NCBI GenBank assembly: GCA_008632985.1
Contig: QPGO01000070.1
Location: 124,001 to 188,000 of the forward strand
Direction of reading: 5' to 3'
From: Psammoneis japonica
Lineage: Eukaryota
Length of the DNA stretch: 64,000 nt
Under the pieces are notes generated by a model. That model saw only the letters and a list, made by a program, of their open reading frames with translations. It was not told the DNA's origin and searched no databases. Within the stretch, counting starts at the first letter, position 1. Each line of letters begins with the position of its first letter. This document shows positions 1-58,200 of the stretch, in pieces. Made by a program: the position numbers and the translations under genes.

Positions 1-1440
1 CAAGCACATGTTTGGACTGACCCAGGATGGTGTGTCTTCCAGCAGGAAAGTGCAGTGGCCAATGAGACAAAAGAAGCGTTTTGCAGTGGTGCCACCAGAG
101 ACTGTTTTGTCATGGATCCAGGTGCACACTTTGATGCATGTCCACGAAACAAAAAATGAGTGTGGGGAGAGAAGAAGGAAACCAAAAAGTTAAACTCTGT
201 TCTCAGTGTCTGTCCGGGCTGGTTCTGGACTGTCCCCATTTTCATTTGCACAAGGGTGGTGGAGTTGTTGTGCTGATGAATTGGACTGATGGGGGGTGGA
301 ACAAGAGGAGTGTCAAAAAGGTTTGCCCGCAATTGTTTGGCAAACAAAGGTTGCGCAGCACATTGTGTGTGCCTGCTGCAACATTGGCAAGCAACAAACA
401 CAAAAAGCACAGCCATTGCTGTTGCCAACCCAACTGCAAGGCCATCCACAACAACTGCCCCATGTGGGGAGAGCCACAAGGATTCCATCACCAACTTTGT
501 GGAGTTGATGACCCAACACCACCATCGGTGCCCCACTTGCCAGTTTCACAAAACACCTGTGTCACAAAATGCACACACACACACACACACATGCATCAAG
601 GCTGAGAAAGTGCACACAAGCAAACTCCTGAGAAAAATCCAACACTGCACTGTGGCCTTCAGTCCACAAGGAATTGGTTGTTGTGTGCACAGTCAAGTCT
701 GCCAACAAATGGGCTGTTTCCCAAACCTTGCCATCTGGCCCATGCTTTCCAAACAAATTGCACAAATTTGCAAAATCACCAAACACAACAACTGCTGCAA
801 AAACACCAATGACAAGGTTTTGGTTTGTCCATTGATCCCACCACAATCAGGTTGGCACTGATTGCCATTTCATCTAATTTGCAGGCACAATGCAAAATGG
901 AAACTTGCGCCACATGCAATTTCTACATTGCCATTTTTCCACAATTGCCACCCAACCCCAACACTTGGCCTGGGCTCCCATGTGATTGTCTGATTTCTCC
1001 ATCAAATCTTGAGCACATCATTTTGTTTTATCTTTCATGACAGATGATTGCAGCGCCGTTGTGGCCCTTGAAAAGACATCATCCTTGTTGCCGTTGTTGT
1101 GGTCATTTCACAAAAATGTTCTAGAAAACCTGCCACATTTCTTGAAGATTGAGGCCAGAGCAAAACTGGCATTGTCACATTCCTTTGCATCATCATGAGA
1201 AAATGCACTGCCACCTCGCTCCATGATTGCAAGGAAAAAGATGAAACCATTGTGAGTCAGATGCACCGTGCAGGGGCCACCCTGCTCTCTTTTTCTGCAC
1301 AGAAGTTGAACAACATGATGCACCTTGGGATTGTCAGCTGAGGAGCATGACAAAAGTCTCTGTCCTGAAGTGCATTTCTGGACCCACTGCATGAGCCCAA
1401 TGCAAGAAAAGCAAAGGTGGTTGCAAGATGCTTCATTGTG
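1..1440. pseudogene. Degenerate, internally deleted copy of 2895-4530 (3' half of the lectin-like gene plus the convergent membrane-protein gene)
   Basis: Colinear similarity, e.g. 5-30 cacatgtttggactgacccaggatgg vs 2899 tacatgtttggactcacacaagacgg, and 1431 cttcattgtg vs 4521 cttcattgtg. Frameshifted, with TA and CG converted to TG/CA. Confidence 0.92.
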
Positions 1441-2463
1441 CAAGAAGGTGCTGCAGCCAGAAAGAGCTTGCGCTGTGGCAACATTGTCGGCTGCTCAGAT
1501 CTTGCCAACATGTTGCTGCCTCAGCAATTGAGCAATGCAAATGACAAGGCAAAGTGCCACAGTTTCCACAACCAAGAAAGTGCCCCCCACACAGGAGAGG
1601 AAACCAAACCAGAGCACACCAGCCTCTTCATCACAACATTGGAAAAAAAAGACCTTCTTCATGAAAAACATGGCAAGATGTGTCAAAGCACAATGTGCCA
1701 CTTTTGACATGAAATCAGGCTGGTTCATGGAGTCTGGTCAAGCCACGCATGCCACTCTTTCTTTGCCACATGATGAAAATTGTCAGCCATCGATGCTGGG
1801 GTGGGGCCAGTTTTGAGGCCGCTCTTGGTGGCGCACTGCAAAGTTGTCGCACAAAGTTGGTGCTCAAGCACACACACTTCTTGACCTCACTCACTGACAG
1901 CACCTTTGTGGCACTTCTTGAGTTGGCACTGTGCTGCATGCTTTGGGCAACTTTGGGAGAAAAAAATTGTTGCCCCCCGTCCGCAAGCTCAGAGCCCACT
2001 CTTTTGGGGGCACTGCGCCCGTTGTCGAGGAGGAGGCATTTCGCTGGTGTTTTCAAGCAACAGAAGTCAAGTGGACAATTCACACTCATCTGTACCATCT
2101 ACTGCCAGGTGTGGCATTGGCACTCCCTGCGGCCACTGGCACAGAAGTTTCAAGTCTCAGTCGAGAAGTTGTTCTTCACAGCTGCTCAGAAGATGACAGA
2201 TGATGAAAAGTTTTAGTCACATGAGTCGACGATTTGATGACGTGCAAATTTTCAAAATTCCAAAAATTGAAAAAAGGAAACGCGAAACGCGAACGCAGTG
2301 TTGATAGAGTTGACATCTTCTCCCTTCTCCCATGGCATCGCAGTCTTCTCTCACTTCTTCGTTGCTTCCTCTTATTACAAAGCGTATCCAACATAAACTT
2401 TACCATACGTAACAATATCAAGTAAGGAAGAAAAGCTTCCGCAAATCGCTCAAGTTTGAATAG

Positions 2464-3228
2464 ATGAAGAGTCTCGAGTACGAGTACACGAGTGTGGCAC
2501 CCTCAGCATCAAGCAATGATGGACCGCGTCAATATCCTCGGAGAAGACGTGTATTGATACAGCTCACTCGAAGGCAACGTCAGCTCTTGTATGTGATTGG
2601 TTTGATCCTTGTCGTGTGCATCTTGGTGGTGATTCAAAAGCGAAAAGCATCCTCCTCTTCTTCTTTGCCCTCGTCGGAACAGTCCAAAACCGCGGGCAGC
2701 AATAAGAACGACAACAACAACATAGCAACAACAACCGATGCTCCCACAGTTATTTTGCCTGCTACGCAAAAGCCTGCAAAACCTACTCCGTCACCGAAAC
2801 CAAAGCCAAAACCATCACAAAAGCCGTTTGAATGCCAGACAGATCGGCTCGGCCATGCGACACGATTGGAATCCGGTCACGCCATTTGCAACCACGAGTA
2901 CATGTTTGGACTCACACAAGACGGCGTGTTTCAGTGGAAAAACACAATAACCAACGAGACAAAAGTATTTTACAATGGTACCGCGGGAGACTATTTCGTC
3001 ATGGATCCAGATGCGTCCTTTAATGTATATCTACAAAACGAAACGCGTGTTTGGCGAGAAGAATGCAACCTAAACGTCAAATTCTATTCCCAGTGTCTAT
3101 CCAGGCCAGTCCTGGACTGTCCCTATCTTCATTTGCACAAGGGTGGAATTGTTGTACTGAATTGGATTGATGGGGGGTGGAACGCAAGGAATATCAAAAA
3201 GGTTTTCCCACAATTGTTTGGCAAATAA
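2464..3228 (+). CDS. Type II membrane protein with Pro/Lys-rich stalk and possible bulb-type (B-)lectin-like C-terminal domain
   Basis: 254-aa ORF with N-terminal TM (LLYVIGLILVVCILVVI), PKPKPKP linker and repeats FGLTQDG / FVMDPDASFNVY..VW / LHLHKGGIVVL resembling beta-prism lectin subdomains. The domain call is tentative. Confidence 0.7.
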   Translation: MKSLEYEYTSVAPSASSNDGPRQYPRRRRVLIQLTRRQRQLLYVIGLILVVCILVVIQKRKASSSSSLPSSEQSKTAGSNKNDNNNIATTTDAPTVILPATQKPAKPTPSPKPKPKPSQKPFECQTDRLGHATRLESGHAICNHEYMFGLTQDGVFQWKNTITNETKVFYNGTAGDYFVMDPDASFNVYLQNETRVWREECNLNVKFYSQCLSRPVLDCPYLHLHKGGIVVLNWIDGGWNARNIKKVFPQLFGK

Positions 3229-3299
3229 AGGTTGCACGGCACTGTGTATGCCTGTTTTGGCGAGTCAAACTGAGTTTACCCCGAGTATCCCTTTTAATT

Positions 3300-4526
3300 T
3301 TAGTAATTATCGTAATACAAGGATACTACAACATCTGCGATAAACACAAAAAGTGCAGTTATTGTTGCCAACCCGACCGCAATGCCGTCTGCGACAACTA
3401 CTCCATGTGCGTAGAGAGCCGCAAGGATGCCAGCACCAACTTTGCGGAGTTGACCCGACATTACCATCAACAACACACTTGCCAGTTCCACAGCGCCTAT
3501 CACAAGAAAAACACACATAAGGCTGAGAATATGCACGCAGGAAACTCGTAAGAATAATCCTGCATCACACGACGGCCCTCTTACCCGCAAGGAATTGCTT
3601 ATTTCGCACAGTCAAGTCTCCCAACAAATGGGTTCTTTCCCATACCGCATAATCTGGTCCATGCTTTCCAAATAAATTACACAAACTCGCAAAAACGCCA
3701 AACAAAACAAGTGCTACAGAAACGCCATCGACAAGCTGTGCATTCTCATAAAAGAACTTGACCACCGGTGGTTTTGGTTTATCCATCGATCCCGTCGTAA
3801 TGAGGTTGGTTACCTTTTCATCCAACTCGTAGGCACGTTGTAAAATCGAATCTTGTACCACTTGTAATTTCTCTCGTGCCATTTCTTCCACGCTCGCCGA
3901 TAGTTCCATGGCTCGTTGTCGTGCCACCTCTTCTGCCAGCGCTGCCTTTTGGAGTGCCATTTTTTGTATTTCGGACGTTGTGTTTTGTGCCGCGTTTTCC
4001 ACTTCTTGACGATAATCCAAAATTAACTTTTCCAAATTGGCCTGTTCGGCACGGGCGACCCGTAACGCTTGGGCCGCCATGCGATCGGCCGAATTTTCCA
4101 TCAAATCTCGAGCACGTTGTTTCGTTTCGTCCGTCATGACGACGGATGATTCCAATGCCGTTGTGGCTCTTGAAAAGACATTGTCATTGTTGTTGTTGCT
4201 CCGTTCTTTTTTGCGTGAAAATATTCTGGAAAACCTGCCGCGTTTCTCTGGTGTTGTTGGGGTTAGAGTAAAACTAGTATTGTCACGACGTTCCTTTGCC
4301 TCGCCGCGAGAAAATATGCCGCCACCTCTATGAATAGAAACAAAAGAAGAAAAAAAACGGTTTAGATTCACCAGAGAAAAATCAAACAGCTCTTTCTGCA
4401 CAGGATACTTAAAAACACGCACCTTGGGATTGTCAGGCGAGGAGCACGTCGAGAGTCTCCGTCCTGAAGCGCATTGCCACTGCATAAGTTTAACGTAAGA
4501 ATAAAGATGCATACAAGAGACTTCAT
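3300..4526 (-). CDS. Signal-peptide protein with coiled coil and C-terminal TM helices; predicted exons 4526-4423, 4327-3585, 3496-3300
   Basis: MKSLVCIFILTLNLCSG signal peptide. GT-AG introns of about 95 and 88 nt join the reading frames as IPR^GGG and FLAG^AVELASV. Confidence 0.75.
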
Positions 4527-5042
4527 TGTGTGTGTTGAAGTGCAATCAATATAACATAATAATATGATTAGCAAGGCCAACAAAAGTCAAACAATCAATG
4601 GGATTGCGATGATGTTGAAAAATAAAAAATGACAGGTGGAACGCACGCACGAACGCTGAAAATCATTCCCGCGTAAGATCCATTCCCGAACCGATGATTC
4701 ATTCGATCAAATAGGCCATATTGCCCTCTTTTTTGGATCTGCCTGCCAAGCAACATTACATTTATATAGATACGAGCTTATGCATATCATTTATATTTAG
4801 CGGGTATATACTTTATATATTGAGAAGGGCAATAATGTTTTTCCGTTGGAAATCAAATCTGAGTTGATCGTGTTTGTTTCGTTTTCGCGGTTGCTTGTGC
4901 GTGCGGCTTCCCATTTCTCGTTTTTCAAGTTAGTCGCAGCCGGAGTGAACCTGGTTATGCACAACAAAAGAGAAGGGATCTTTTCAACGATTGACTCTAT
5001 TTCAGTGCCCTGGTATTTACCTTTTTTTGCATTTGAAGCAAC

Positions 5043-7197: not shown

Positions 7198-7550
7198 TCG
7201 TTGTGTGGCACGTGCACGTAATATATTTCTGTTTCGCATCGGTTTGAAGTAATCTACTCTCTCAGTAGAGCTAAGTTTTCTTAAGTTACTTACGGTACGG
7301 TAGTGCTTTACCCTACTGTACGATGCTACCCGTGTTCTTCTCACATTCTTCACAGGGATAATCCGACGAACGCCTCTCTGTTTTCCCCGATGCAATCGAA
7401 GCGTCGAACGCTGAAACAGTTCACACGGCACGGCCGCTGAATCGAAACGAATAGTATCTTATGTACCGCTGTTCGGTAGTTGCGCAGCAACGCAGTCCAG
7501 CAGAACATCTACTGTGTACCGGCAAGAACATGCTCTTCCAGGATAGCACC

Positions 7551-8560
7551 CTAACTTTCAGTATCCACCTCCTTCTCTACCATGAATGGTGGATGCACTT
7601 CCCGCACCCAGGGGACGATATCGAACAAGTGCAATGACTCGTAAGCATCATCAGGACCAGCCGCGTTCACTGCTGCAAAAATAGAACGGGGAAACATTTT
7701 CGGAGCCTGATAACCGGCCGTGCGGTACATCTCCCGTTCCTTGTTATAGTTGGTGCCTCCGAAGTCTTGAAGAATATAATCAGCGTTGACCGGTTCATCG
7801 TCGGCTTCATTTGCTTCATCACCTGAGTCATTAGGGATGCGGATGGCGATCTTTCTTATGTCTCTCCAGCGCTTCAACAGGTACTTGTCCAGAGGTCTGA
7901 CGTAGCACAGCGGGAGATCTTCGTCATACTCTATAGCACAGTGTCATTGTCATTCGTACTCAATTCTATTCGACCAAGAGGCATGTTCCAAATAGACAAT
8001 TCGTACTTTGTACTGACAAGGAGCGTATGAGCATCAATGCTGAGACTAACTGGTGAGCGTTCTTGTGATCTTAGTGTGCACACATCGTAGAACTGATCGC
8101 GAACCTTTTGTCCTTCTTCGTCACTCAAGTTCTCGGCAAAGGAGGTAAGCCGTTCGTATTCGAAGACGAAGTCTGACGTGCCGAGGCCCTGAAAATCAAA
8201 TGTTTCACTTGCTGTCGCGAGCCACCATCTTGTATAAACCACGTCACATTGCACTCCCAAAGTCCGTTCCACCTTGAACAGGCATCTGCATACTATTCAT
8301 TGTTTTTACGATCATAATCCACGTCTTCTCTTTCTCGAAGGTGGCAGAAGGGGTCTGCATCTATCACCACGGAATTTCCCACACTGCCATGTGGGGTCCG
8401 CTCCACGTCCCGTGGGGATTGTTTGGGTTCCTACAGCTAGGAGTCATCCCTGCACTCAGCAATCCATGTCTTCCATCGCAAAATCATCAAGCAACAGACG
8501 AATCCGATGATCTGGTGTATTAACATAATCCTTGTTTGGGCCGCCTTCCATGTACCGATA
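7551..8560 (-). pseudogene. Fragmented hypothetical coding sequence
   Basis: Consecutive protein-like ORFs 7931-8272 and 7551-7877 separated by stops. No family recognised. Confidence 0.35.
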
Positions 8561-8981
8561 AAACGGCAAAGAATCACCCGTAGGGGATAATAAGTTTCTC
8601 TTTCAAACGGCCATTGTGCTGCTTCGCCGATGAAGATAATATATATGACAAGCTACGCATGCCTCCGACGAAGGCTGTCGCTGACACAATGACAGATACG
8701 AGTGGACCCTCTTTTACCTTCTCATATTTTTGGTGCTCTTGTTAGTGGCGGCGTCATTGGCAGCAATTGTCGAATATGTGTCTTGTGTTTTGCTACCGCA
8801 TGGACGATGGGACCCTTGTTGTTAAATGTACGTAGACATCATCTTGAATGCACGTAATAGCAAAAAGAAGCATTTGCAGTGCATGATATTCCCTGTCCTA
8901 GTGGTAAGCTATAGCTCCAATGGCGATTCTTTCTTTTCAATCGCCATCGATTCCTCTCGTATGTATTTTCGGAGCTTCTAG

Positions 8982-9830
8982 CTAGCTACGCAGCATCGCT
9001 ACAGCATCGCACCGTCCATCCTTTTCCGATTGCTTCTTCTCCTCCACCACAGCCGAAGCCTTCGTTGTCAAAGTAGATTCCAACATCTGTTCCCACTCAC
9101 AACCTCGGCATGTGCATCCCTCGTCATGAGAAGAAATGGAGTCTTCGTCGTCGCTGCTGTCGTCAGCGCGGCTCGCATCAGAGCTACTTTCGGCCCTATC
9201 GCCGCCACCACCCTCTTTACCACCGACTTGATCATCATCTTCCTCCTTCCTTGCAGCAATCGACAATATACCACCTCCTCCAAATCGTGTCAATGCAGCT
9301 CGAGCTGCCAATTCCCTCGCTGGAATTGTCGCTTGCTGCGCCATTGTCGCTTTTCCCTCCTTTGTTCGCTTATCAATCATCTTGGCGCCCTTGAGGAGCG
9401 GGCGACGCTTTTCCTGTTGTTGCAGTGCCCTTGTTCCCATTGCCTGATCAGCGCTACGTTTCCTACTGCCACCTTTCCTCCAACGACGACGACGACGTCG
9501 TTTCTTGGCACCACATTTTTCATTGGAATCAAACAATGGAATCTCGCCATGTTGTGGCACAATCCCACTTGCCGCTTATTGTCCCACCGTAGAAACATGT
9601 CCCGATTGTGTCACAAACGCATTATCACATCCATACGTATCCGTTTTCTTTTTCAACCTCTCCATTCTTGAGCAAAGTCGAGTATTGAATTCGAATTTCA
9701 TCGAGCAATTCATAAAAGGCTGGTGGATGTATATCCTCCAATCCAATGGACGTGTGGGTAATTTCATGAAACATGACTCCCATGACTTGTGTTCCAATGT
9801 CCGAAACTGCCGACGCAGTGCTTGTTGGGT
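8982..9830 (-). pseudogene. WLM (Wss1-like) zinc metalloprotease, 5'-truncated by a LINE and frameshifted
   Basis: Joining frames gives RQFRTLE/QVMGVMFHEITH...IHPPAFYELLDEIRIQY, the WLM HExxH..H..FY pattern, followed by a basic/acidic low-complexity tail. Confidence 0.7.
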
Positions 9831-9849
9831 TCTTGTCGAAGATTGAGTT

Positions 9850-11720
9850 GAATATTGGTGGACATGCCGCATCGGCATATCTCCGCGACCAAAAAGCTCT
9901 AACAACAAGTTTCTTAAGAACAGGCAGAAATGAACAACTGCCATTGAGAAGACCGCTGGGGAAGTGGACAGGCGAACCCACTACGAATTGGTGGTTTTCG
10001 GAACGCTTCGACAGGTTGTACCGTCAGCTGGAAGGATATGTGGAGATGTACTCAAAAACTCAAAAACTCCCCAACGAAGAAGTAACAGAAGAGCCAGTTA
10101 CCAATTAAACGGAAAGGAGGACACTGTGCCGCGCGACGCCAAACCGACTCAGGTCACAAGGAGAGGGATTAAGATGAACCCTACAGGTACTTCGGAGGTA
10201 CTATGGACAGGAGACCCAGAGAGACCTCTGGACAATGTCGAATGGTCCTTTATCCCCTACGGACACCAACCGAATTTGGAAGCTCTTGTTTGAGGCATCG
10301 AAGCAGGCACATCGATTTGCGTAACGGACGGATCCTATAAGGATGGCTTAGCAACCGCAGGAATGATTCTTGTTCCGAGTGAGGGACACTCACACAGATA
10401 TCGTGGAGTTAATCAAACACCTGGAGCAGAGGATGATCTGACACCGTGCCGGGGAGAATTGGGAGGCACATTTGGCACAGTTGCATTTATTCTTCGTCTG
10501 TGTAGACAATTCAACATCAGCTCCGGAAAAGTGTCATTGGCTTGCGACTGTGACCTGGGACTTCGGACATGCTTCTACAATTCATGTGATCCAATCAGGG
10601 GAATGATTCAAGAATTGCCAGTGGTTGTGGAGGCGGCAGATGTAGAAGGACACAAGGACAAACACACTCCTCTCCAAGAGTTGTCTCACTTAGAACAACT
10701 GAACGTCGAAATGGATCTTTTAGCCAAGGCGCACTGGGAAGCACTCCGACAACACGACGACACTGCACCCTGCGAAATCAAGCAACCAACATGGTCGGTG
10801 CAGCTCCGAGGTAGGACCTTTACATCGTGGCGAGAGCAAAGTGTCCTGGATCACATGTGCGGACCCCCCGCAGAAGAGCACTGGCACAAGAAACTAAGAG
10901 CGGAACACTCTCCGGTGGAAATTGATTGGCAATCCCTTGGGAAAGCGATGAAACGCTGCCCCACCTTCAGACAACTCTGGCAACCTGAGTGGAGCGTGCT
11001 TTTTTGCTGGAAGAAGGTGGAGAGCCTGGCATGTCCAAGATGTGGGGAGGATGAAGAAGGCATTGATCACATGCTACGATGCAGGGCGTTTGCAGCTCAA
11101 GAACTGTGGAGGAAAAAGACATCCAACCTGGAAAAGTGGTTGACTGACAACCTCACACACAACCCGACATCCGGAAAGGCATGCTCAGCAGCATTGCGTC
11201 CTGGTGTGAAGACCTTCCCAGCCCCACCCCACGCTCGGATTACCCACACATGCAGGAAGCCTTCGAGGCACAAGAGAACCCAGGTGGAAGCTTGTCAGTC
11301 CGGGGTTTTTTGGCAAGTGAATGGGCTGCAGCACAACAAGCTCGCTGTGACTTCATCAGACGCAGGCACACAGGCGAAAGATGGGTGGCAGGCTCAATGC
11401 AACAGTTGTGGAACACAGCATGGGACATGTGGCAGCAACGCATGTGAGCGTCTGTGTCTCCTGCCTCTGAAGCACGACTCACCACACATGGCATTTTAGA
11501 TGGGGAGATTGAAGAAGAGCATGGTTTGTTCTTCAGTTGTCACTCGGATTCACCTCAGTGTGCCAGGTGGTTTGCAAGGACAATGGAGGAAGTGCAAGCA
11601 AAAGACGTTGACTTTAAATGACATTGGCTGCAGGCAGTGAGGGTGGGAAAATGCACTGCACTCTGTCCATCGACGGACCAATGTTCAGAGCAACAGTCTC
11701 AATCAAGAAGCACTCCACAA
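9850..11720 (+). mobile_element. 5'-truncated non-LTR retrotransposon: RNase H domain plus C-terminal CCHC zinc knuckle
   Basis: TDGSYKDG, RGELGG, CD, VEGHKD and LNVEMDLLAK RNase H motifs; CPRCGEDEEGIDHMLRC knuckle; stops and frameshifts. Ends are approximate. Confidence 0.85.
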
Positions 11721-12405
11721 CTCTGCACGCTGTTGCATTTGTTTTGCAGTTGACGCTCTGACTCCATTCCATGGTTGTTGATTGAAAGGAAAAATCAGGC
11801 GCAACTGAGCCTTGGGTGGCCACTGTGAGAAGCGGTGCAAATTTTTAGATTGAACTGAATTGAGTGCTTGACATGCCACCCACGTTCGCACAATGCAGGG
11901 TTGACATGACAGGCAACTCTCAAGCTCTGGGAGTGCTCTCGCCACTTCGGGACAATCACCATCCTCGAAAACTTCAATGCCCCACATGCAACAACACTGT
12001 CGATCCAACAAGTTGTTGACGGAAGCGACAAACTGAGGAGGCAAGCAAATTTCATTGTTGTTTGTGTTGTTCATGTTGGCAATGGAATTTTCAGAGCCAG
12101 CTTCTTGTTGTTTTGGCTTTGCTTCCGCAGTGACGGGATTTGCTTTCGCAGCAACAATGGAAACGTTGTTCTTGGCATTGCTCAGACTTGCTTCCAAGAT
12201 TGCCCCAACATTTCAATTGATTTCCTGAGAAGTTGACATTTGAGTGTGGAAGGGCAGACAGACTGACAACAATTGTTTCTGGCTGAGTGCTCTTCCACAC
12301 AACATCCATGCATTGACTCTGACAGCCGCAATGATTCCTGTTGACCACAGGTGTTGATGGCATCCAAAAGCACTCAGCCCCCACTTCTTTTGCACAGTGC
12401 ATGGC

Positions 12406-12802
12406 GACGCGTTCCAGCCCCAGGTGGGAGCTCGCAGCACTGACGTGTGACAACAACAACTTTTGTCATCTGTCGCATGTTTCGCACGTAGATTTCCATG
12501 TGTGACATTTAAAAAAAAATTGTCCAGACTCGCTGTTTTGCGAAGCCCCAGACGTTTTATGTGACAAATTTATAGAAACAACAATGCGCCAGTTACATTC
12601 TTCAATGTCTGAAGAATGTAACTGGCTGAGTAAAAAATGATGTGCTTCAATCATGTGCGAGTTTGTGCGTTCGCAAAATTGCCTCATTTTCTGTTGGCGA
12701 TCATTGACATTTTAATTGCCATGTGATTTTGCTGCGGAGCTCGCACGTAGAAGTCTACGGGCCCAATGTCACACGGATTCCCACCTGCATCTGGAACGCG
12801 TC
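12406..12802. mobile_element. MITE, about 397 bp, TIR GACGCGTTCCAG, 4-bp TSD TGGC
   Basis: tggc|gacgcgttccagccccaggtggga ... tcccacctgcatctggaacgcgtc|tggc, with an internal 17-bp perfect hairpin at 12588-12626. Confidence 0.85.
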
Positions 12803-12867
12803 TGGCACACCATGCACAACCTTTGGAGTGGTTTGCAAATTGTGCCCAAGACATTTCATTTGGTGAA

Positions 12868-13871
12868 GACGCGTTCCAGGTCCAGGTGGGTGGGACCTCG
12901 CACCACTGAACTGTGACATCGACAGTTTCATTGACCACTCAGTGGTTGGTGATTGCAGACTTTTTCGTGTCGGTCCGGCAGTCGGGCAGTCGGGGGGTCG
13001 GGCAGTCGGGGGGTCGGGCAGTCGGGTTGTCCGTCTGAATTTGAAAGTGTGTCCCTAGGATTTTAGAACGGGATGGGTTGTTTGGCACAGATGAATTCTT
13101 CGGATTCACAGAATGATCATTGAGGACATGAGAGGTCGTGGGGACATCCTTAAAAATCGACAAATTCCCTACGACGGGTGCGTGGCACGGTTTTTCAGGA
13201 GAGCTCGAAAGTGCTGTAAAATTGGGATTGCCGGCGTGGCATGTTCAAAAATGCACTCAGTTGTGAACAAAGACAATTGATCGTGAATTCTACATGAAAC
13301 AGTCACACTTGGGAAAACATGTCGAACAACAAGTGAGTTTGTGCGATGCGCCATTGTGGCGATAAATTGGAAAAAAAGAGTGTCTGTGCACCTCGCTGCA
13401 GCCCCAAAAAATGGCATGAGACATCAAACACAACGGTCATCCGTGTCACCGGTGCGGTGGCCACGCCACTCAGCCGCCACAACACCGGCCCCGGCGGCAG
13501 GGCCCTGCGTACGTACAGACAACACAGCATGCAACGGCACACACCCACCCACAAAAGCGAAAGACAAGTGGTCAATGCTCCCCGCAGGCCTGGTTTTGAA
13601 TCGCGTCGTATGTCGCGCACGTGCATTTCTACGTGATTTTGGCAAAATTTTGTATGATTTTATAGTGCAATTATCAGTCGATCCATTGAACAACTTTTAA
13701 TGTTTTTTTCTTCTGCGCCATTCTCGAGTGTCTTAAGAATGGCGTAGGGCAGGCGCATCATCCAAAACTTCGAGTACGAACAGGGACAGATGTGCCACAA
13801 ACTTGGCCGTTTTTTTTATGTCAAAGATAAATGTGTCCATTGACCAGAGTACGAACTACAGAGCTCGCACG
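12868..13871. mobile_element. Second MITE-family copy, split by a nested insertion at 12929-13577 (11-bp TIR cattgaccact/agtggtcaatg)
   Basis: Starts gacgcgttccagg. 12868-12928 plus 13593-13871 is colinear with the reverse complement of 46990-47324. Confidence 0.75.
12970..13027 (+). repeat. G-rich short tandem repeat (GTCGGGCA/GTCGGGGG units)
   Basis: gtcgggcagtcggggggtcgggcagtcggggggtcgggcagtcggg. Confidence 0.85.
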
Positions 13872-14959
13872 TTGTCAGTTGTCCTGCTGCAAACAGGACA
13901 GTCTTTGGTTTCATGGCTGAGTCAGTTGTCAAGAACATGGAAGTTGGTCAATTTTTGCTCCTTTTTCGATGCAGAATTCTGCACCAGTGCACGGTGTGTG
14001 CCGTGCACCAGCTGACACTCTTCAATCACTCCCAAAGAAATGCCACACGAGACTTCACATGACAAAGACAGAGATTGACGACACTGATTCAACACTTGAC
14101 ACTCTGTGTGAGGAACAAAGGATGATCACAAGGCTGCATCATTTGTGATGACTCCTCAAGTTGGGGAGTCATTTGGTGATTCAATGAACAGTTTCCTCCT
14201 GAATGTGTGTTTTGCATTCAATGGAAATGTGAGTCTAAAATCACACAAGAAAATCATGCTTTTGTGTGGGCATGAGTCTCCCACTCAATTGGCCCGTCTC
14301 ATCAATGACTGTGCCCATGAGCTGTCACATGCTTTGTTGTTGTCTCTTGTTGCTCTGCACATGCAGCAGACATTGTTTCTTCATCTCAGATGATTCATCA
14401 TTTAGGATGTGGACACCACCAGCCTCCTTGTTCATTCCCCTGAATGTTGGCAAAAACTGGCAGGCAATGGATGGACCAAAATGTGTGGAGCTGCATGCAG
14501 ATGACCAATTTCGGTGACAACTTTGCCCCTGTTTAATTTCTGTCAAAACAGTTGCCTTCCACAGCCATGGGCTGTTCTGCAGGATCAATCAGGTTCTGAC
14601 CCTGCTGTTTGACACTGGTGGCATGACCCCACATCCACATGTCTGATGTGTCCACCGCCCAAGCCAAACAATGTTGTTTTGCATTAATTTGGACATGCTT
14701 CAATGCAAAATTGATCTTCTAAGAAACATGTCTTTGAACAATGACTGCATGCTTTGTGTGCACACAATGTCAAAATTAAATGCAAAATGCAGTCATTTGC
14801 AGTCACTTGGGAGGAAACAGTCAAGTGGAATTTTACGTGGAACATGCCACTGGCATTTGCCTGCACATTTTCTGTGTTGTTCTTGGAATCTGGCTGCACA
14901 CCCTGGACCCAAATCAACCACAGAAAAGTGAGACAGGAAGGTTGTGTCATGAGATGCTT

Positions 14960-15730: not shown

Positions 15731-15806
15731 TGACATGTTTTGATTCATTCTTGTGCTTCAAGTTGGTGATTCGGGCGAGTGGCAAAAATTGGCAAAAATG
15801 GGCAAA

Positions 15807-15950
15807 GCATGGCGCCAGCCGTGCACCAGCACAATGGACCATTTTGCGCGGAAGATGACAGATGGAAAATCTGAAAAACAGCATGGCCAGCCATGCATCA
15901 GCATGATGGACCATTTTGTGTGGAAGATGACAGATGGAAAATCTGAAAAA
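15807..15950 (+). repeat. Two-copy tandem repeat of about 72 bp
   Basis: atggaccattttgYgYggaagatgacagatggaaaatctgaaaaa occurs twice. Confidence 0.85.
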
Positions 15951-17843: not shown

Positions 17844-17849
17844 ACGGCT

Positions 17850-19010: not shown

Positions 19011-19398
19011 AAGGAGGGACACATGAAGGAGCCAAGAGACAGGGAGGGTTGGGGGGTAGACGGGAAAGGGGGCAAGTTTCTCTTTCAAACGGCCATTGTG
19101 CTTCGCGTTTTTTGCTGCGGCAGTTTGGAGTTGGCCATCGTTTTTCTACTTCCGTCTGTCACTGCCACCACCATCCCGATTGGAAAGTAAAGATTTTACG
19201 TTGATGCTACTGTATGTAAAGTATATACTAAGTCTCTGCGTAGCGAAAATCCAAAAAATCGCAGAAAAATCGAGAAAAAATAGCTCCGCGCCGATGCCGG
19301 CATGCGATCATGCGACGCAACACACAACGACAAGTCTATCGTCTTCGCAACAGCAGCCTTACCAAGCACCTACATCCTACATCATACACGAAAAAACA

Positions 19399-23988: not shown

Positions 23989-24036
23989 TTTTCTACTACA
24001 CTTTCCTGGCCAGGCTCTCAAATATCAAATAAGAAC

Positions 24037-45200: not shown

Positions 45201-45955
45201 GAGTTTGTGACATGCATGCACACAACACACAACAACATGCCAGCAGCTCAGCATTCTGGATGCGGCAGATTCGTGACAGCACACTCGCGATCACAAAATT
45301 CAAGCTGCGCCCGAATGAAACCCCATCTTGACCAACCAGAAGGATGGAAGGCATCACCACACATTGAGCTGCTGTCATCGGCCAATGGGGCAAAGTCTTT
45401 CACCACCATGGCCGGTTGTCGATTTGCAGATTTGCGACCACACGTGGGATCCACGTGAATCACAACAGCACGCGCTCTCGTTTTTCAAACTTTGGGGAGG
45501 AGAGGGTGTGCTGTTGTGAAATGTGCAGAAAATTGCACATGCAAAACACATGCTGAAAACACCGTAGACCAACAGGCTGTGCAAAAGTGAAGAAAAATGA
45601 AGGTGGGTCACGTGCGTGCGTGAAGTGCTGCAGACTGCACACGTGCAAAGACACACACACGTGAGTGAGGAGGACAAAGTTAAAACCAAGTTCAAATTGA
45701 TTACGATCAAAAGGAAACCAAACCATGCACAACAAAAAATGGATTTTGATCCCAGCTGAACCAAACATTGCATGCATTTGATTGAAGCTTGTGCAAGAAA
45801 AGTTAATGAGACATCAGACAAAATGCAAAAAACAGCTTCATTTTGTCAAGCACTTTTGCTGGCATTTTTTAAGTTCTGCTTGTTGACAATTTTAACAATG
45901 CACACTCAAAATTTTACAAAGGAAAGTGGGGGCCACTGCATTGTCGCCTCTGATG
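42290..45955. mobile_element. Element bounded by inverted arms of about 680 bp (42290-42970 and 45275-45955)
   Basis: cactttcctttgtaaaattttgagtgtgcattg at 42316 vs its reverse complement near 45895-45928. Similarity is continuous across the arms. Confidence 0.75.
44020..44640. repeat. Internal degenerate tandem repeat, about 4 units of 150-190 bp (mirrored at about 48480-49090)
   Basis: Recurring ttcattgc..a...tgtgagagcaca...cagacttgc..gtgca.cc. Confidence 0.75.
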
Positions 45956-46941
45956 TGCTGAAGCACGTGCGCACTTCTTGCTCCTGGGACCAAGCCAAAG
46001 ACAAGATCAGACGTGTTCCAGCCGCACGTGAACCAAATCGTGCACAAAAACGACATTTGCGCGATTTTTGCGCGGTCCCTAACTTCCGATCGAACTTTCA
46101 CCACCAAAAGTATAGATTTATACAAATGTGGATGTTTTGAAACACTAACAAGACTCGTGTGAGTGTTGCAATATCATTGTTATTGTGGTATCTATGTTTT
46201 TCATTGCGTTAAGAGATTCGTAACACAACGGATGATTTTCGGCGAAAATATTGCCGTTATTCGCATGTTACCTAAATATATATTTCTACAATGCTACTTG
46301 GTAGGTTTTCTACCTACAAAGAAATCTCAGTATAAATATACTGACGAACAATCAGTATTGAGTCTACTGAGGAAGTTTATGATATTTACCCATGAAGACT
46401 TGAATACCCCTCAAAAAACTATTTAAATGCTCATACTCTAGAAGCCTATAAAAGTCAATCCGTCTAAGTATTTTATATGAAAATGATTCATACACTAAAA
46501 GATATATAAATTATGTTCAAAATCGATTGTCGTTTTGTGCGTCACCTGGGACTGGAACACGTCATCAGTGCTGGGCTCTCAGGGCAGAGCCCTGCACACT
46601 TTGAGTTGGCCAAATTTGACAAGACACTGGCAAACTTTCCCTTTTTGTTGCTGGCTGCTTCCCAAATGTTGGCAACAGGGGGCAGATCTTCTTGCTCCAA
46701 AGACCAAAGAAAAAAAGTTTTGGGAAGGAAAATGGCGTGCAGTGCTGGGGCTCAGATTTGGATTGCAAGGGACATCAGAGGCAGCAACATGGTGGTTTTC
46801 ACTTTCCTTTGTAAAATTTTGAGTGTGCATTGTCAAAATTGTCAACAAGCAGAACTTGACAAATGCCAGCAAAAGTGCTTGACAAAATGAAGCTGTTTTT
46901 TGCATTTTGTCTGATGTCTCATTGACTTTTCTTGCACAAGC

Positions 46942-47324
46942 GACAGGTTCTGGGTGGGACTTTTTGTGACATTTGCCCCGTAGAATGCTGCGTGTGAGCT
47001 CTGCAGTTTGTGCTCTGGTCAATGGACATGTTTGTCTTCGACACAAAAAAAACGGCCAAGTTTGCAGTGCATGTGTCCCTGTTCGCACTCGAGGTTTTGG
47101 ACAATGCGCCTGCCCTGCGCCATTCTTAAGACACTCGAGAATGGCGTAGAAGAAAAAAATGTTAAAAGTTGTTCAATGGACAGCCTGACAATTGTGCTAT
47201 AAAATCATACAAAATTTTGCCAAAATCACGTAGAAATGTACGTGCGCGACATGCGGCGCGATTCAAAAAACTGTCGATGTCACAGTTCAGCAGTGCAAGG
47301 TCCCACCCAGACCTGGAATGCGTC
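46942..47324. mobile_element. MITE-family copy inserted in the right IR arm, TSD AAGC
   Basis: Empty site cacaagcttcaa at 42449. Filled site cacaagc|gac...gcgtc|aagcttcaa. Confidence 0.88.
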
Positions 47325-50164
47325 AAGCTTCAATCAAATGCATGCAATGTTTGGTTCAACTAGGATCAAAATCCATTTTTTGTTGTGCATGGTTTGGTTT
47401 CCTTTTGATCGCAATCAATTTGAACTTGGTTTTAACTTTGTCCTCCTCACTCACGTGTGTGTGTCTTTGCACGTGTGCAGTCTGCAGCACTTCACGCACG
47501 CACGTGACCCACCTTCATTTTTCTTCACTTTTGCACAGCCTGTTGGTCTACGGTGTTTTCAGCATGTGTTTTGCATGCGCAATTTTCTGCACATTTCACA
47601 ACAGCACACCCTCTCCTCCCCAAAGTTTGAAAAACGAGAGCGCGTGCTGTTGTGATTCACACGTGGATCCCACGTGTGGTCGCAAATCTGCAAATCGACA
47701 ACCGGCCATGGCGGTGAAAGACTTTGCCCCATTGGCCGATGACAGCAGCTCAATGTGTGGTTGTGCCTGCCATCCTTCTGGTTGGTCAAGATGGGGTTTC
47801 ATTCGGGCGCAGCTTGAATTTTGTGATCGCCAGTGTGCTGTCACGAATCTGCCGCATCCAGAATGCTGAGCTGCTGGCATGTTGTTGTGTGTTGTGTGCA
47901 CGCACATCACAAACTCACTTTTCTGCAGCGTTGTTGCAATCACGCATGTCAGAGTTTTGCATCCAGAATCATCACAAGTTGCCATGAATTGCACTGTCTC
48001 CAAACAAGGCATGTGCAAAAAGAGGTTCGTTGGTTTTTGATGCATTCGCTGACAACACATCCGTCTTCTCCAATTTCTGTGTCCAGACCCAGAAAGACTG
48101 CAGGCGGTGCTTGTTCCTGCAGCTCTCAGAATCACACATGTGAAAAGTTCTTTGCCACATGTGACACTCTTCAAAAAAGGCATGCACAAAAAGAGCTTCA
48201 TTTGTTTTTGATGTGTTCACTTACGTTGCATCCGTCTTCTCCAATTTCTACATCCAGATCCAGAAAGACTGCAGAGGTGGAGAGTGGGGAGGCAACCCAT
48301 TGGAGGTTGCCTGAGTTGTTGGGCTCATTTTTAAAGGCTTCCCAAGTCTCTCCGCTGTTTGTGGTCAAGAGCAGCAGGGGGGGTCGACTGCAACAACCGC
48401 AGCAGCTGCCAATTCCATGTCGATGGGTCGGGAACCGGTGGCAGAAGCTCCCAAATCGGTGGCGGCGGATGCACCTGCAAGTCCACATTGAGGTTTCAAT
48501 TGGTTGCTGTTGTTGTCCTGTGCACTCTTACAAAGCATTTTGCATTTCTTTGCAATGAATGAGGTGGGTCAGAGCAATGTTGCTTCACATGGTCCTGAAT
48601 CGGCTTCGCGGGGTCGGGAACCGGCGGCAGAAGCAACCGAATTGGCCATGGCAGATGCACCAGCAAGTCCATGTTGCAGTTTCAATTGGTTGCTGTTGTT
48701 GTCCCATGCACTCTCACAAAGTGTTTTGCACTTCTTTGCAATGAATGAGGTGGATCAGAGCAGCGTCACTTCACCTGGTCCAGAGTCAGTGGCGCTGAAC
48801 ACACAGGCAATTCTGTGCATTGATGTCTCCATTGGTTGTGGTTGGCTCATCTTTGTCATGCTCTCACAATGTTTTCCACACCATTCGGCAATGAACAAGG
48901 TGGCTGCCAGTGCTGGCAGCGGCTCTTTAAGAAAGAGAGCTGCAGCAGCTGCTGCAAACTCGCCTGCTCCAGAATCGGTGGTGCCGGATGCACCAGTGAG
49001 TCCATGTTGCTGTTCCTGTTGGTGGTGTCAGTTCATCCACATTGCACTCTCACAACACATTCTGCACTTTTTTGGCAATGAACAAGGTGGCTGCAAGCAG
49101 TGGCACTCAAAGAAAGTGAGCTGCAACTGCTGCTGCAGACTCCAGGGTGTTGTCTCCATTGGCATCATTCAATTTAAATGCAAACAACAAAATAGAATGT
49201 TCATGGTGCAACGCAAATGATTTCAATTTACAGGTTTTGCAGGGACAGAGGGCGGGCACTCTCACAGGGAAAACGTGCCCCTGTTTCATGGTGAAACATT
49301 TTTTCTCATGGGGAGGGGGGGTCTGATCCCACAGCACAAAATGTCAATCTGTCACAGTTGACATGTCATTGCCAGCTACACAACTGATGAGGTTTGAAAC
49401 CACAAAAAAATTGTCTGTGAAAGGAGTGAAAATCACAATGAAAAGATGTGTGATGATCACTGTGTTGCGCGCTCTGATGAACAAGACGGAAATGTGACAC
49501 ACACCAGGAGCCCTTCACCGACATCCAGACACAGGGTGTTGACATTTTCATCAAATGACTTGTCTGAGCACTCTGGGTGAACAACGCCCCCGCAAGGGCA
49601 GTTTTGTGCTGACATGGCCGTTCAGAACAAAATTCACAGAACCAGAAGATGTCAGATGGGTGGCTTCATGTGCAGAAGCTGCTGAGGTCAAGGCAGACAG
49701 ATGGATAGAATCGATGGGGAGCAAATTTACCATGCCCTGTGGCGCCAGATGACAGTTACAAAGTGGTTGAAAAGAAGTTGACTGACAATCGAATTCTTGA
49801 GCCAAAGTGAGAGATGAGCTTTAGAACCGCGTTCTCAAAGGTCCACGTAGGGAACACGTAGACGACCTATTGAGAGATCTTGAAATGACTTATGGATGAC
49901 CCTTTATCAGTACTGTACATACTGTAGGTTGCAGTCAATGCATGGAGATCGCACTGTACTGCACCTACTACTTAAGAGCAATGAGAACCTTGGACAGAAT
50001 CGAATCCGAGCCATAAGAAGCCATAAGTCATTGGTAACAATTATGGCGTTGATGTTAACAAACACAGGGATAATAGGCCAGGTGGTGAGTCACACGGCAA
50101 AAACTCCAAAACACCAATTCCAAATTTTCAATACAAGGAAAGCATCAGCCAAGCAGAACACACC

Positions 50165-55477: not shown

Positions 55478-57031
55478 TTATGAAGGTATTCTGACATCAT
55501 GGTAGAATTTGAAGATGCAAATGACCAAGGCGCCCACCATGCAAGCGACAATCAAGGTGGTAATGACAAAGCTTCCATTGAATACATCCGCCAATATCCC
55601 GGTCAGTAGCGCTCCGACCGCATAACCCGAGTCTCTCCACAATTTGTAGATACCAATCGCAGATGCTCGATCAATCGCTGGTGTGTGATCACTAATGGCT
55701 CCCGCCATGACGCAATAAACACTGCCAATTCCACAACCAATCACAATTCCTCCAATCAACAAAAAGATGTAGACTTGACTGATTTCATCAGCAGCATGGT
55801 GGTGCATGTCGGCCAAGGCAGTAATGATGAGTCCGACAATAGCAGTCAGGAATCCCCCAATCAAAATGGGCTTGCGCGTTTGCCTATAATCGCTCATGCG
55901 ACTGGCCAAGATCATCATGGCAGCTTTGGAAAAGGTAAATGTGGATCCAATGTTGGCCACTTGAAATTTGTCGAGTGCTTGTTGTCGTGCCCAAATCAAC
56001 ACCAGTCCCCATGCCAAGGACGTGACCAGGTTGGTCATGAGTCCAGCCACCAAGAGGATGGCAGTGCTTGGATTGTGCCAAGAAGTTTGTAACAGCACCG
56101 ATCCAAAGGATGAAGGGGTTATTATAGGTGTGGGTGTTTGGACGCTTGAAGAGGATTTTGGCTGTGCCGTGGACGATGAGAATCCCACCAACTCGTATTC
56201 TGATCCAGGCCTTGCTATTCGGGTAGGACATTGTGGAGTTGAAGGATCGCTGCATTCTCCTTCTTTCGTATGTCGAATTAAATCCGATCCGTCCTTATCA
56301 TTGTTAGAGATACGAATTTCTTTGTCCTCTGCCTCATCATCGGCAGCATCGAATATCGAATTATCATGTTGTGTAGATGACGATGACTCCAACAAGACAA
56401 ATTCGGTTGTATCCTTCATCCCAACTACGGATACAACAAGGCCCAATAGAGAGCTTGCCAAAACAACCGAAAACGCTCCCTCAGTAGACAAGGCAGCCGC
56501 AAGATAGGTCGTGATGGCTGACGAGAGGTAGCCGGTACTGTTCGAAATCCCCGAGGCCAAGGCACGATTGTCGGGTCCGAGAATGTCAATAAACATGAAA
56601 ATATTCGTTGTCCAAGTCAATCCCTGCTGCGCTCCCAAAAATACATTGGCAACCACATACCAAGTCCAACTACTATCATTGTTCTTGTCGTTATGAGAAG
56701 AGGTTGTGTCGGTAGAAAAGGCAATCGCGAGGAGTAAAGCCCCCAAGACAATCCCTGCCATCCATCCAACGCAGTGAGGCAACTTACGCCCATGTAGATC
56801 CGACATGCGTCCCACGAGGAGATTGGAAAAGGCTTTTGTAAATCCAAAAGACACCAAAAACGCTGTTTGAAGTGTGTGAGAGCTATCCGTCGATGATGCA
56901 GCCAACAGGGCATCTGTAAAAGTTGTCAGTTTGAGTGTAACGCCAATCAAAATGGCCATGACAAAGTGGAAAAACAACTGACAGCCATTGCCGCGGAACC
57001 CAAAAGATACTGCTTTGCCTTCAGGCATCAT
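55478..57031 (-). CDS. Major facilitator superfamily transporter
   Basis: 517 aa with about 12 hydrophobic helices, motif A GRMSDLHGRK, and GIYKLWRDSGY. Confidence 0.9.
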   Translation of the reverse strand: MMPEGKAVSFGFRGNGCQLFFHFVMAILIGVTLKLTTFTDALLAASSTDSSHTLQTAFLVSFGFTKAFSNLLVGRMSDLHGRKLPHCVGWMAGIVLGALLLAIAFSTDTTSSHNDKNNDSSWTWYVVANVFLGAQQGLTWTTNIFMFIDILGPDNRALASGISNSTGYLSSAITTYLAAALSTEGAFSVVLASSLLGLVVSVVGMKDTTEFVLLESSSSTQHDNSIFDAADDEAEDKEIRISNNDKDGSDLIRHTKEGECSDPSTPQCPTRIARPGSEYELVGFSSSTAQPKSSSSVQTPTPIITPSSFGSVLLQTSWHNPSTAILLVAGLMTNLVTSLAWGLVLIWARQQALDKFQVANIGSTFTFSKAAMMILASRMSDYRQTRKPILIGGFLTAIVGLIITALADMHHHAADEISQVYIFLLIGGIVIGCGIGSVYCVMAGAISDHTPAIDRASAIGIYKLWRDSGYAVGALLTGILADVFNGSFVITTLIVACMVGALVICIFKFYHDVRIPS

Positions 57032-57349
57032 TGTTTGATCATCGTTGTTAGCACATACAACGCAGCTGTCTGGCGACTACAAATAATTTGTTGAACTTTT
57101 GTAGGACGGGAAACTTGCGGAACGGGTTGCTGCGAAAGCGAGGTTCCAACATGCGCTGCTCACTCCTTCCCTTTTGTCTGTTGATGCAGGGTCGTTGTTC
57201 CTTCCCGCAAGCTTGTCGGCATAAGAAACTTCTTTGTTGACTGTTACAGTAACGGTACGTTGCGCCTTCATTTTTCTCATTGCGGCCGAGTCGTCGTCGT
57301 CAAGTCTCGCACCGACATCGCGCGATCGCACGCCAAGTCATCGCACCGG

Positions 57350-58200
57350 GTGTGCATGATGTCTCAATCTGAAATGCCACCCTCCTTGCTTGTGCATGCA
57401 TGTGGGAGGAGCTTCATTTGGGTCAGTTTGTTGGAGCCCAGATCTTGGCCTCGTGGATTAGGGGTTCCCAACAATCAAGCAGCAGTGAAGCAAAAGCAGG
57501 GTGCTGCGGCGGCTCTTAATTTGGATTTTTTGCTCGCTCCCTTTTTGCAAGAAGGGCTGTGCTTTTTGGCATTTTGTGTGTGTGGGTGTGTGTGTGTGGG
57601 TGTGGGGCTGTGACATGGAGGCTGCAGCTTCATGCCAGCCATTTTTCGAGCTTTTGCCACAAAGTTTGTGGGGGCAAAAAAGACAAGGCCGCGTCTCTGG
57701 GACGATGAGAGAGAGCTCGCCCCGGCGCTGGCGGCCGCCTCGTCCTTTTGCAGGTTGCCCACTTCTCAAAAAGCAGTGCAGCCATGTCTCTGGGGGATCA
57801 TGCCACCTCACAGCCTGGGGGCACTTTGCCCATGTCAAAGCCCCTCTGGCTTTTCAAAAAGTGGCGGCACACAAAAAGCCAGCCGGGAGCTTCTCTTTTC
57901 TGCTCATTCTTCGCGGGCTTCTGTGTGATTGTGTGTCACTTCATGGCGCTGATGGCCAAAGGGCAAGGGGCAGGGAGGAGGGCAGAGCAGCACGCCAAAA
58001 AGCTCTGTTGTGTTGCGCTGCCAGCTGGCACCTCTCTTGTGAGTGCTCCAGCTGTCATGTCCAAAAAAGACTCCCCTCCTTTTGCTTTTGATCTTGATCA
58101 AAGCACCTCCTTTGCGAACTAGAAAAGGTCAAAAATTAGACTTTGGTCGCACAAAGCCAGGACAAAAAAGAGTTGACTCATCACAACAACAACGAAGCCA
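57350..58200. other. TA-depleted degenerate block with a (TG)n tract
   Basis: Almost no TA between the MFS upstream region and the tRNA. Confidence 0.6.

Follow-up and report, generated by a model that had tools for sequence, protein, structure and literature searches.

This report concerns a 64-kb window of the genome of the pennate diatom Psammoneis japonica (assembly GCA_008632985.1, contig QPGO01000070.1, positions 124,001 to 188,000 of the forward strand), in which DNA of ordinary composition alternates with blocks nearly devoid of the dinucleotides TA and CG, hereafter hypermutated blocks. Coordinates are those of the window, and all the results on blocks come from within it.

Composition of the window and contents of the blocks

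Over the entire window, the observed/expected (o/e) ratios were 0.40 for TA, 0.76 for CG, 1.41 for TG and 1.40 for CA. A sliding-window scan showed that these averages join two kinds of DNA, with TA o/e dropping from ~0.4–0.9 to 0.0–0.15 within the blocks, where CG o/e was ~0.1–0.6 and TG/CA reached 1.5–2.1. We called the blocks with a two-state, first-order Markov hidden Markov model (HMM) trained by Viterbi iteration, which assigned 24,460 of the 64,000 bases (~40% of the window) to a depleted state (Table 1). Depleted segments had TA o/e of 0.05–0.08, CG o/e of 0.17–0.46 and TG/CA of 1.4–2.0, against TA o/e of 0.56–0.64 (0.58 overall outside the blocks) and CG o/e of 0.92–1.04 in normal segments; TA density was 4.8 per kb within the blocks and 41.7 per kb outside them.

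The original prediction, made from the sequence alone, had described six sharply bounded TA- and CG-depleted blocks, and the HMM recovered them to ~100 bp, with the exception of the left edge of block 2, which had been set at 10450 and is placed by the HMM at 10915; composition changes gradually there, as a gradient spread over ~1 kb. Blocks 2 and 5 had been drawn as unbroken and proved to be interrupted, at 12473–13872, 46006–46533 and 47119–47278, and block 6, in which loss of CG is weaker than loss of TA, is not called by an HMM that reads CG alone. A unimodal distribution of TA o/e had been named beforehand as evidence against such blocks; in 250-bp windows we found a bimodal one, with modes at 0.07 and 0.56 (Bayesian information criterion 13 for two components versus 116 for one).

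Loss of TA and loss of CG largely occupy the same DNA. Segments called by a TA-only HMM (T-to-A steps) and a CG-only HMM (C-to-G steps) overlapped with a Jaccard index of 0.897, a value reached by none of 2000 circular shifts (maximum 0.46), the two ratios were correlated (Spearman 0.70), and the shifts in TA and CG coincided to ~50 bp at most block edges. Just upstream of the LINE (long interspersed nuclear element) fragment in Table 1, the region 9000–10000 had TA o/e of 0.36–0.42 with normal CG (0.9–1.1), and may be a lightly hit zone that has lost TA without losing CG; the open reading frame (ORF) 8982–9668 is Tyr-poor (0.9%) and Cys-rich (6.1%). The odd sliding-window composition around 60.5–61.2 kb is due to an assembly gap of 352 N at 60661–61012.

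Table 1. Hypermutated blocks and other features of the window
Feature	Coordinates	Strand	Remarks
Segments in the HMM depleted state	1–2214, 10915–12472, 13873–16142, 17893–19056, 30158–31736, 34109–46005, 46534–47118, 47279–49704, 57349–58115		
Hypermutated block 1	1–2214		HMM: TA o/e 0.05, CG o/e 0.21, 7 TA; extends past the window start
Unmutated paralogue of block 1	2897–4530		Normal TA and CG; reference state within the window
LINE ORF2 tail (RNase H and zf-RVT zinc knuckle), probably 5'-truncated	10294–11496	+	Domains from homologues
Hypermutated block 2a, 3' part of the LINE fragment	10915–12472		TA o/e 0.05, CG o/e 0.45, 5 TA
Unmutated miniature inverted-repeat transposable element (MITE) with terminal inverted repeats, nested in block 2	12406–12802		Terminal motif GACGYGTTCCAG at 12406 (+) and ending at 12802 (−)
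Unmutated copy of short MITE-like repeat	13560–13900		14 TA and 19 CG per 341 bp; 88.8% identical to 47268–46991
Hypermutated block 2b	13873–16142		TA o/e 0.07, CG o/e 0.28
Hypermutated block 3	17893–19056		Stops 40 bp short of the CRAL-TRIO gene (ORF 19096–20181)
Hypermutated block 4	30158–31736		TA o/e 0.07, CG o/e 0.17
Hypermutated block 5a, high-copy repeats	34109–46005		TA o/e 0.08, CG o/e 0.44
PhyH / 2OG-Fe(II) oxygenase-like ORF fragment	37644–38159	−	PF05721, E 2.5e-7; PF13640, E 2.1e-6
Left arm of 2.15-kb inverted repeat within block 5	43635–45791	+	Partner 47324–49479; 93.1% identity
Unmutated high-copy MITE, 554 bp, nested in block 5	46010–46563		22-nt terminal inverted repeats; ATCA at both flanks
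Hypermutated block 5b	46534–49704		Contains the right arm of the inverted repeat (47324–49479) and the MITE-like copy 46960–47340
Hypermutated block 6	57349–58115		Upstream of the MFS transporter gene 55478–57031 (−); TA o/e 0.05, CG o/e 0.38, 2 TA

Stop-to-stop ORFs of the blocks were nearly free of Tyr (~0–1.6%) and rich in Cys (2–12%) and His, as had been predicted. Counting both strands, the blocks hold 124 TAA, 46 TAG and 1129 TGA triplets, a stop usage that explains why long empty ORFs abound in them. Among block ORFs of at least 120 aa (50 of 60 scanned), two gave any Pfam match and only that to PhyH/2OG exceeded the curated cut-off, and those of 65–119 aa (150 of 176 scanned) gave none; 199 of the 200 ORFs scanned were thus without a match above that cut-off. 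In normal regions, 11 of 26 ORFs matched a family.

The signature was expected to be independent of sequence family, and a gene pseudo-copy, a LINE ORF2 tail, MITEs, high-copy repeats and a PhyH-like fragment do all lie within blocks. One MITE family is present in both mutated and unmutated form, and the LINE ORF contains 0.7% Tyr, whereas its 150 best homologues have a median of 2.6% and a minimum of 1.24%. The inventory originally proposed for the blocks (LINE, MITEs, elements with terminal inverted repeats and gene fragments) largely held, although the MITEs with intact termini turned out to be the unmutated ones.

We identified the LINE fragment from 1253 homologues (representatives at 50% identity, E ≤ 1e-3), to which ORF 10294–11496 aligned at residues ~1350–1700 of proteins of 1600–1900 aa. 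When 20 long homologues were scanned with Pfam, 9 had RVT_1, 7 had Exo_endo_phos, 5 had zf-RVT and 1 had RNase_H, and neighbours of the ORF in the Atlas bear RVT_1, Exo_endo_phos and RNase_H. The ORF itself had no Pfam match, and a search of PDB with a profile of the alignment returned 0 matches; the family is large but Pfam-poor, with 5 of the 20 long members lacking any match at E ≤ 0.01. Two of the three well-aligned, conserved Tyr columns are now Cys (TGC) or His (CAC) in the fragment, along which depletion deepens gradually from 5' to 3'.

The MITEs nested in blocks 2 and 5 share the termini GACGYGTTCCAG. The first is TA-dense at 12489–12756 and explains the first part of the intermediate zone 12473–13872. 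The second has arms at 46010–46031 and 46542–46563 that are 86% complementary, and the HMM segment containing most of it (46006–46533) has TA o/e of 0.89 and CG o/e of 1.46. Its summed depth in contigs built from read data (see below) was ~14,000, about 250 times that of unique DNA, and 13 contigs had a loose end at 46010. The activity of this MITE family seems to postdate the most recent round of hypermutation. Copies of the short MITE-like repeat differ in the same way: that at 46960–47340 is largely unmutated (9 TA and 19 CG; HMM-normal at 47119–47278), and block 2b holds mutated copies at 14990–15100 and 15340–15670, the latter with 2 TA and 7 CG per 331 bp and one surviving TA within TTAA. 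At 12966–13032, adjoining the nested MITE copies, an 8-bp unit (GGGCAGTC-like) is repeated in a short, CG-rich tandem array that lacks TA and has normal CG.

The PhyH-like ORF of block 5a sits in a ~70-copy repeat and could be either a captured gene fragment or an oxygenase borne by the element; a search restricted to longer proteins found no homologue. Blocks 3, 4 and 6 showed no convincing terminal inverted repeats or target-site duplications at their edges. The MFS transporter next to block 6 had its best named matches in Cylindrotheca closterium (62%), C. fusiformis (64%) and a metagenome-assembled genome of the Bacillariaceae (61%); on these matches the host was placed among the raphid pennate diatoms, in the Bacillariaceae, in agreement with the diatom assumed in the original prediction.

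Direction, sequence context and strands of the change

The window contains a reference state for block 1. Bases 3–1440 of the block are a collinear, degraded copy of 2897–4530 (three pieces of 69–77% identity in a BLAST self-comparison), a segment of normal composition that covers the 3' part of ORF 2464–3228 (+) and all of ORF 3565–4545 (−); block 1 is a dead duplicate of these two host genes. In the alignment of the paralogues, none of the 52 TA of the normal copy persists in block 1, where 26 read TG, 16 CA and 10 other dinucleotides, and only one of its 67 CG is kept, with 26 now TG and 26 CA. Conversely, 71 of 89 TG and 88 of 109 CA were retained. The two copies also differ by indels and by ~10% background transitions. 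The normal copy includes an apparent orphan gene (ORF 3568–4545 (−), 326 aa), for which neither a Pfam family nor, in a search of similarly long proteins, a homologue at E ≤ 1e-5 was found, and which keeps its normal composition beside its destroyed duplicate.

The same alignment, with the strands folded, identified the context of both changes. After a T, 47 of 102 A had turned into G, compared with 25/251 after A, 21/193 after C and 15/153 after G; before a G, 56 of 134 C had turned into T, compared with 16/195 before A, 9/125 before C and 7/117 before T. The base 3' to the TA also mattered, with hits at 20 of 30 TAC and 16 of 31 TAT compared with 4 of 13 TAG and 7 of 28 TAA, and the strand hit agreed with the 3' base at 19 of 26 informative sites. 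The TA left in the blocks tell the same story: the 115 survivors comprise 59 YTAR, 33 YTAY, 19 RTAR and 4 RTAY (Y, pyrimidine; R, purine), whereas the 1634 TA of normal DNA comprise 265, 452, 441 and 476, respectively. TTAA was the best retained (36 in blocks versus 88 outside), and ATAC, ATAT, GTAT and GTAC were nearly gone (0–2 in blocks versus 113–127 outside; ATAC, 0 versus 113). A model in which the strands are hit independently, with rates of about 8 : 7 : 4 : 1 for a 3' T, C, G and A, fitted the ten four-letter classes reasonably well. Finally, TG equalled CA within noise in nine of ten sub-blocks, and both strands are therefore substrates. The direction of the change, its context and its action on both strands are firmly established by these counts.

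Loss of TA could in principle be a by-product of mutagenic repair, if the T:G mismatch left by deamination of 5-methylcytosine (5mC) entered non-canonical mismatch repair and the tract were resynthesized by a Pol eta-type polymerase. Such synthesis writes A-to-G at WA motifs (W, A or T), as happens during phase II of somatic hypermutation of immunoglobulin genes. This route would explain why TA and CG are lost over the same DNA and why the strands are hit equally, but it does not explain why AA is spared, with A-to-G after a 5' A (25/251) about as frequent as after C or G and far from the 47/102 after T. Moreover, TA loss outpaces CG loss, its supposed trigger, in the inverted-repeat estimate given below, it occurs with little CG loss in block 6 and at 9–10 kb, and the hypermutations reported for the chlorarachniophyte Bigelowiella natans all fall at TpA. 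We consider this explanation unlikely.

The same palindromic dinucleotide leaves A-to-G and T-to-C looking alike, so that thymine might be the modified base instead: a TET/JBP-type dioxygenase would convert the T of R-T-A to 5-hydroxymethyluracil or 5-formyluracil. Mispairing of these bases with G gives T-to-C, and TpA-to-TpG on the other strand. The preference for TAY can equally be written as RTA on the thymine strand. However, the analysis turned up no sign of such a base or enzyme, the sole 2OG-oxygenase signal in the window is the PhyH-like fragment, which lies outside the TET/JBP family, and the near-complete conversion of TA would demand very efficient mispairing; we find thymine oxidation quite improbable.

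Duplication, copy number and read data

The inverted repeat within block 5 allowed us to examine changes that followed a duplication. Its arms differ by 131 mismatches, 124 of them transitions, and 99 of the 131 are exchanges among TA, CG, TG and CA. TA was present in both arms at 5 sites and faced TG or CA at 13, CG was present in both at 43 and faced TG or CA at 34, and at 26 sites TG in one arm faced CA in the other, each such doublet representing independent hits on opposite strands. From the ratios of sites with one copy lost to sites with both kept, we estimated a loss per copy of ~0.57 for TA and ~0.28 for CG, as compared with ~0.0075 per base elsewhere (32 other mismatches over 2147 columns and two copies); on this estimate, loss of CG was ~20-fold above background. 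These counts indicate that the TA process continued to act after the internal duplication, which we regard as equally well established, and that it ran faster than CG decay.

We also compared the window with Logan contigs of a DNA sequencing run, at a likeness threshold of 88%; the run may derive from the window's own source sample, and the variants considered are 40 of the 555 recorded against the read contigs. The matching sequencing data comprised three DNA runs from a single sample and study, and no RNA run. A contig covering 28500–31773 showed 21 differences from the window; 16 of these fall within block 4, and they include three TG/CA doublets, one TA/CA and two CA/CG. The density of differences was ~5 times higher in block 4 (16 in 1579 bases) than in its flanks (8 in 4186; Fisher p 6.6e-5). 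Contig depth was ~55 across 28.5–34.5 kb, block 4 included, which is therefore single-copy at the 88% threshold. Conversely, summed contig depth ranged from ~900 to 40,000 over ~34.5–48.5 kb, with ~40,000 at 47176–47842 and values from ~900 to >14,000 in block 5a, versus ~55 for unique DNA, indicating that block 5 is made of high-copy repeats. At 41340–42318, contigs were identical to block 5a (0 differences, depth 66).

These comparisons bear on whether the sequences could have arrived already mutated, having been edited before they were inserted, either as RNA by an ADAR-like enzyme or as cDNA or DNA intermediates in single-stranded form. Edges sharp to ~50 bp and the transposon origin of many blocks are what such a course of events would produce. 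Nevertheless, block 1 was copied at the DNA level from two genes on opposite strands together with their spacer, and is no retrocopy; hits are equal on both strands, unlike those of single-strand editing, and arose independently between the arms of the inverted repeat and between the read contig and the window; the LINE fragment shows a gradient and no step; and the disfavoured 3' G (4/13) runs opposite to the preference of ADAR. Editing prior to integration is thus very improbable.

Modified bases can yield systematic miscalls on some sequencing platforms, and the run has no platform on record, so that base-calling or assembly errors might be suspected, as might horizontally acquired DNA of odd composition. 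Against this, the separately built Logan contigs are identical to the window at 41340–42318, although they are not fully independent if the run is from the same sample; the indels and ~10% background transitions of block 1 fit real divergence; and the same signature was observed as genuine mutation in B. natans lines sequenced with Illumina. The blocks, moreover, go back to native genes, to a LINE and to MITEs, which are also found unmutated. We consider both artefact and foreign origin scarcely credible.

Interpretation and comparison with known systems

Our preferred reading, to which we give a probability of roughly 0.7 from the sequence comparisons, is that DNA silenced for a long time, and probably methylated at CpG, is subject in situ to a mutator that turns A into G specifically at TpA, and that two transition processes have rewritten old, inactive DNA. 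The blocks would be such DNA, consisting of a fragment of a LINE, copies of MITEs and of other high-copy repeats, and a defunct duplicate of two genes. One process would convert CpG to TpG or CpA by the ordinary decay of heritably methylated cytosine, of which loss of CG is the usual footprint. The other, faster, would convert TpA to TpG or CpA, that is, A to G after a 5' T on either strand, with a preference for the 3' base of T ~ C > G >> A; TTAA would survive best because a 3' A is the least preferred. The chemistry would most likely be enzymatic deamination of adenine on DNA, with inosine read as G, and the putative adenine deaminase behind it is purely hypothetical. Because both processes share DNA with matching edges, the most likely target of the TpA process is DNA that is heterochromatic or stably methylated at CpG. 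It would remove Tyr codons, TAA and TAG stops and TA-containing signals such as the TATA box, and would serve as an irreversible genome defence.

Several observations weigh against this reading or qualify it. Unmutated, CG-rich MITEs reside inside blocks, so that location within a block does not by itself bring mutation; either the TpA process works in episodes or sets in slowly, or its targets are single elements. Block 6 has lost TA with a modest loss of CG, escaping the CG-only HMM, and 9000–10000 has TA o/e of 0.36–0.42 with normal CG, and the coupling of TA and CG is therefore not strict. Edges of ~50 bp are finer than spreading chromatin would give. The nested MITEs, the edges and the weak CG loss of block 6 together point to a time-integrated record of single segments, or to an episodic process like that of B. 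natans. Three related metagenome diatom contigs (27.5 kb, a small sample) had no window with TA o/e below 0.3. The polarity of the block 1 paralogue pair, which lacks an outgroup since no homologue of ORF 3568–4545 was found, rests on composition and on the LINE outgroups. Lastly, because TA is palindromic, A-to-G on one strand equals T-to-C on the other, and the damaged base would not be identifiable from sequence.

On a metagenome diatom contig (L003), positions 7501–8845, at the contig end, had CG o/e of 0.11–0.29 and TG of 1.8–1.95, with TA mildly low at 0.32–0.43. As CpG decay without strong TpA loss, this suggests that one process may occur without the other in some species.

The original prediction had further proposed that the signature follows a chromatin domain and that TpA o/e could map silenced chromatin. 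The first proposal gains from the loss of CG over the same DNA and loses from the ~50-bp edges and the unmutated MITEs inside blocks, which indicate that the signature reflects past exposure and not the present chromatin state. The second needs amending accordingly, as young silenced insertions would escape such a map, and the term silenced chromatin would itself be inferred for the blocks from CG decay. The signal appears to track individual old DNA segments and time, rather than a present-day domain. The process itself, A-to-G at TpA, did not figure in that prediction.

The closest known system is that of B. natans, for which mutation-accumulation lines yielded 302 nuclear mutations, 231 of them in two integrated viral regions; of these, 230 were A-to-G or T-to-C, all at TpA, at ~1000 times the background rate and in some lines only (bioRxiv 10.64898/2026.01.13.699255). 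According to the same preprint, the B. natans genome holds 124 TpA-poor, CpA- and TpG-rich clusters enriched in reverse-transcriptase and DDE domains, and an ADAT2-like DNA adenine deaminase was proposed, with a reading as defence (Mettrop et al. 2026, bioRxiv 10.64898/2026.01.13.699255). P. japonica shows the same conversion of TpA to TpG/CpA by A/T-to-G/C changes (42 of 52 TA became TG or CA, with 0 kept), the same confinement to discrete regions that spares neighbouring genes (here, HMM segments, bimodal TA and ~50-bp edges) and the same targeting of selfish DNA, over a wider range that includes a pseudo-copy of host genes. The systems differ in that the host is a diatom, a stramenopile, instead of a chlorarachniophyte, and in that the targets are a LINE, MITEs, repeats and a host-gene duplicate instead of giant-virus or virophage inserts. 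Loss is near saturation here, with TA o/e of 0.05–0.08 against 0.45 in the nucleocytoplasmic large DNA virus region of B. natans, and it is visible only as a historical footprint, unlike the de novo mutations of the latter. CG loss over the same DNA and the 3'-base rule TAY go beyond the preprint, whose main text does not mention CpG, trinucleotide context or diatoms (bioRxiv 10.64898/2026.01.13.699255).

The blocks also resemble the products of repeat-induced point mutation (RIP) among ascomycetes, where irreversible, dinucleotide-specific transitions wreck repeats and duplicated genes and leave compositionally distinct blocks. RIP is a C-to-T change at CpA that creates TpA and hits both copies of a duplication. 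Here, TpA is destroyed (TA o/e 0.05–0.08, TG/CA 1.4–2.0) and C-to-T before A occurred at just 16 of 195 sites; moreover, one paralogue (2897–4530) is intact, and block 4, single-copy at the 88% threshold, is mutated. The intact paralogue rules out a RIP-like, homology-triggered action on both copies. A diatom DNA methyltransferase, DNMT4, is related to fungal RID, and diatom transposons are CpG-methylated and become de-repressed upon loss of DNMT5a (PMC9998398). As in the CpG decay of methylated transposons, CG became TG/CA in the affected DNA (in block 1, 52 of 67 converted, 1 kept); this decay explains half of the TG/CA excess but cannot remove TA, the loss of which is a separate process, at least as complete and faster. 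Deaminase-type hypermutation of selfish elements with a preference for the 5' neighbour is likewise a feature of ADAR hyper-editing and APOBEC editing of retroelements in animals. The substrates there are RNA or single-stranded cDNA and the resulting changes are strand-biased, whereas the blocks were hit equally on both strands of resident chromosomal DNA, non-retroelement DNA included, and with a 3' preference different from that of ADAR.

Full-text literature searches turned up the B. natans preprint but, for diatoms, no account of hypermutation at TpA, and a term search of Maumus et al. 2009 (PMC2806351) found no mention of the signature. A phenomenon described in 2026 in one chlorarachniophyte would thus now be seen, as a footprint in sequence, in a pennate diatom; its co-extension with CpG decay, the TAY motif and the host pseudogenes among its targets are new here. 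A saturated footprint in a diatom means that the TpA process would not be peculiar to one alga. Its sharing of DNA with CpG loss provides a testable targeting rule, 5mC or heterochromatin, and the motif TAY > TAG >> TAA is a requirement for any candidate enzyme. For genome annotation, the loss of TAA, TAG and Tyr codons yields long, false Cys/His-rich ORFs and hides transposons from Pfam.

More tentatively, and as a possibility that we hold with less than even confidence, diatoms may possess an enzymatic DNA adenine mutator guided by methylation or heterochromatin, with the motif TAY and action on both strands, a mirror image of RIP in a pathway shared with B. natans. If true, this would be an old and unnoticed genome-defence system across the SAR supergroup (stramenopiles, alveolates and rhizarians), one that would shape the decay of transposons and the death of pseudogenes and would make long-silenced DNA readable from sequence alone.

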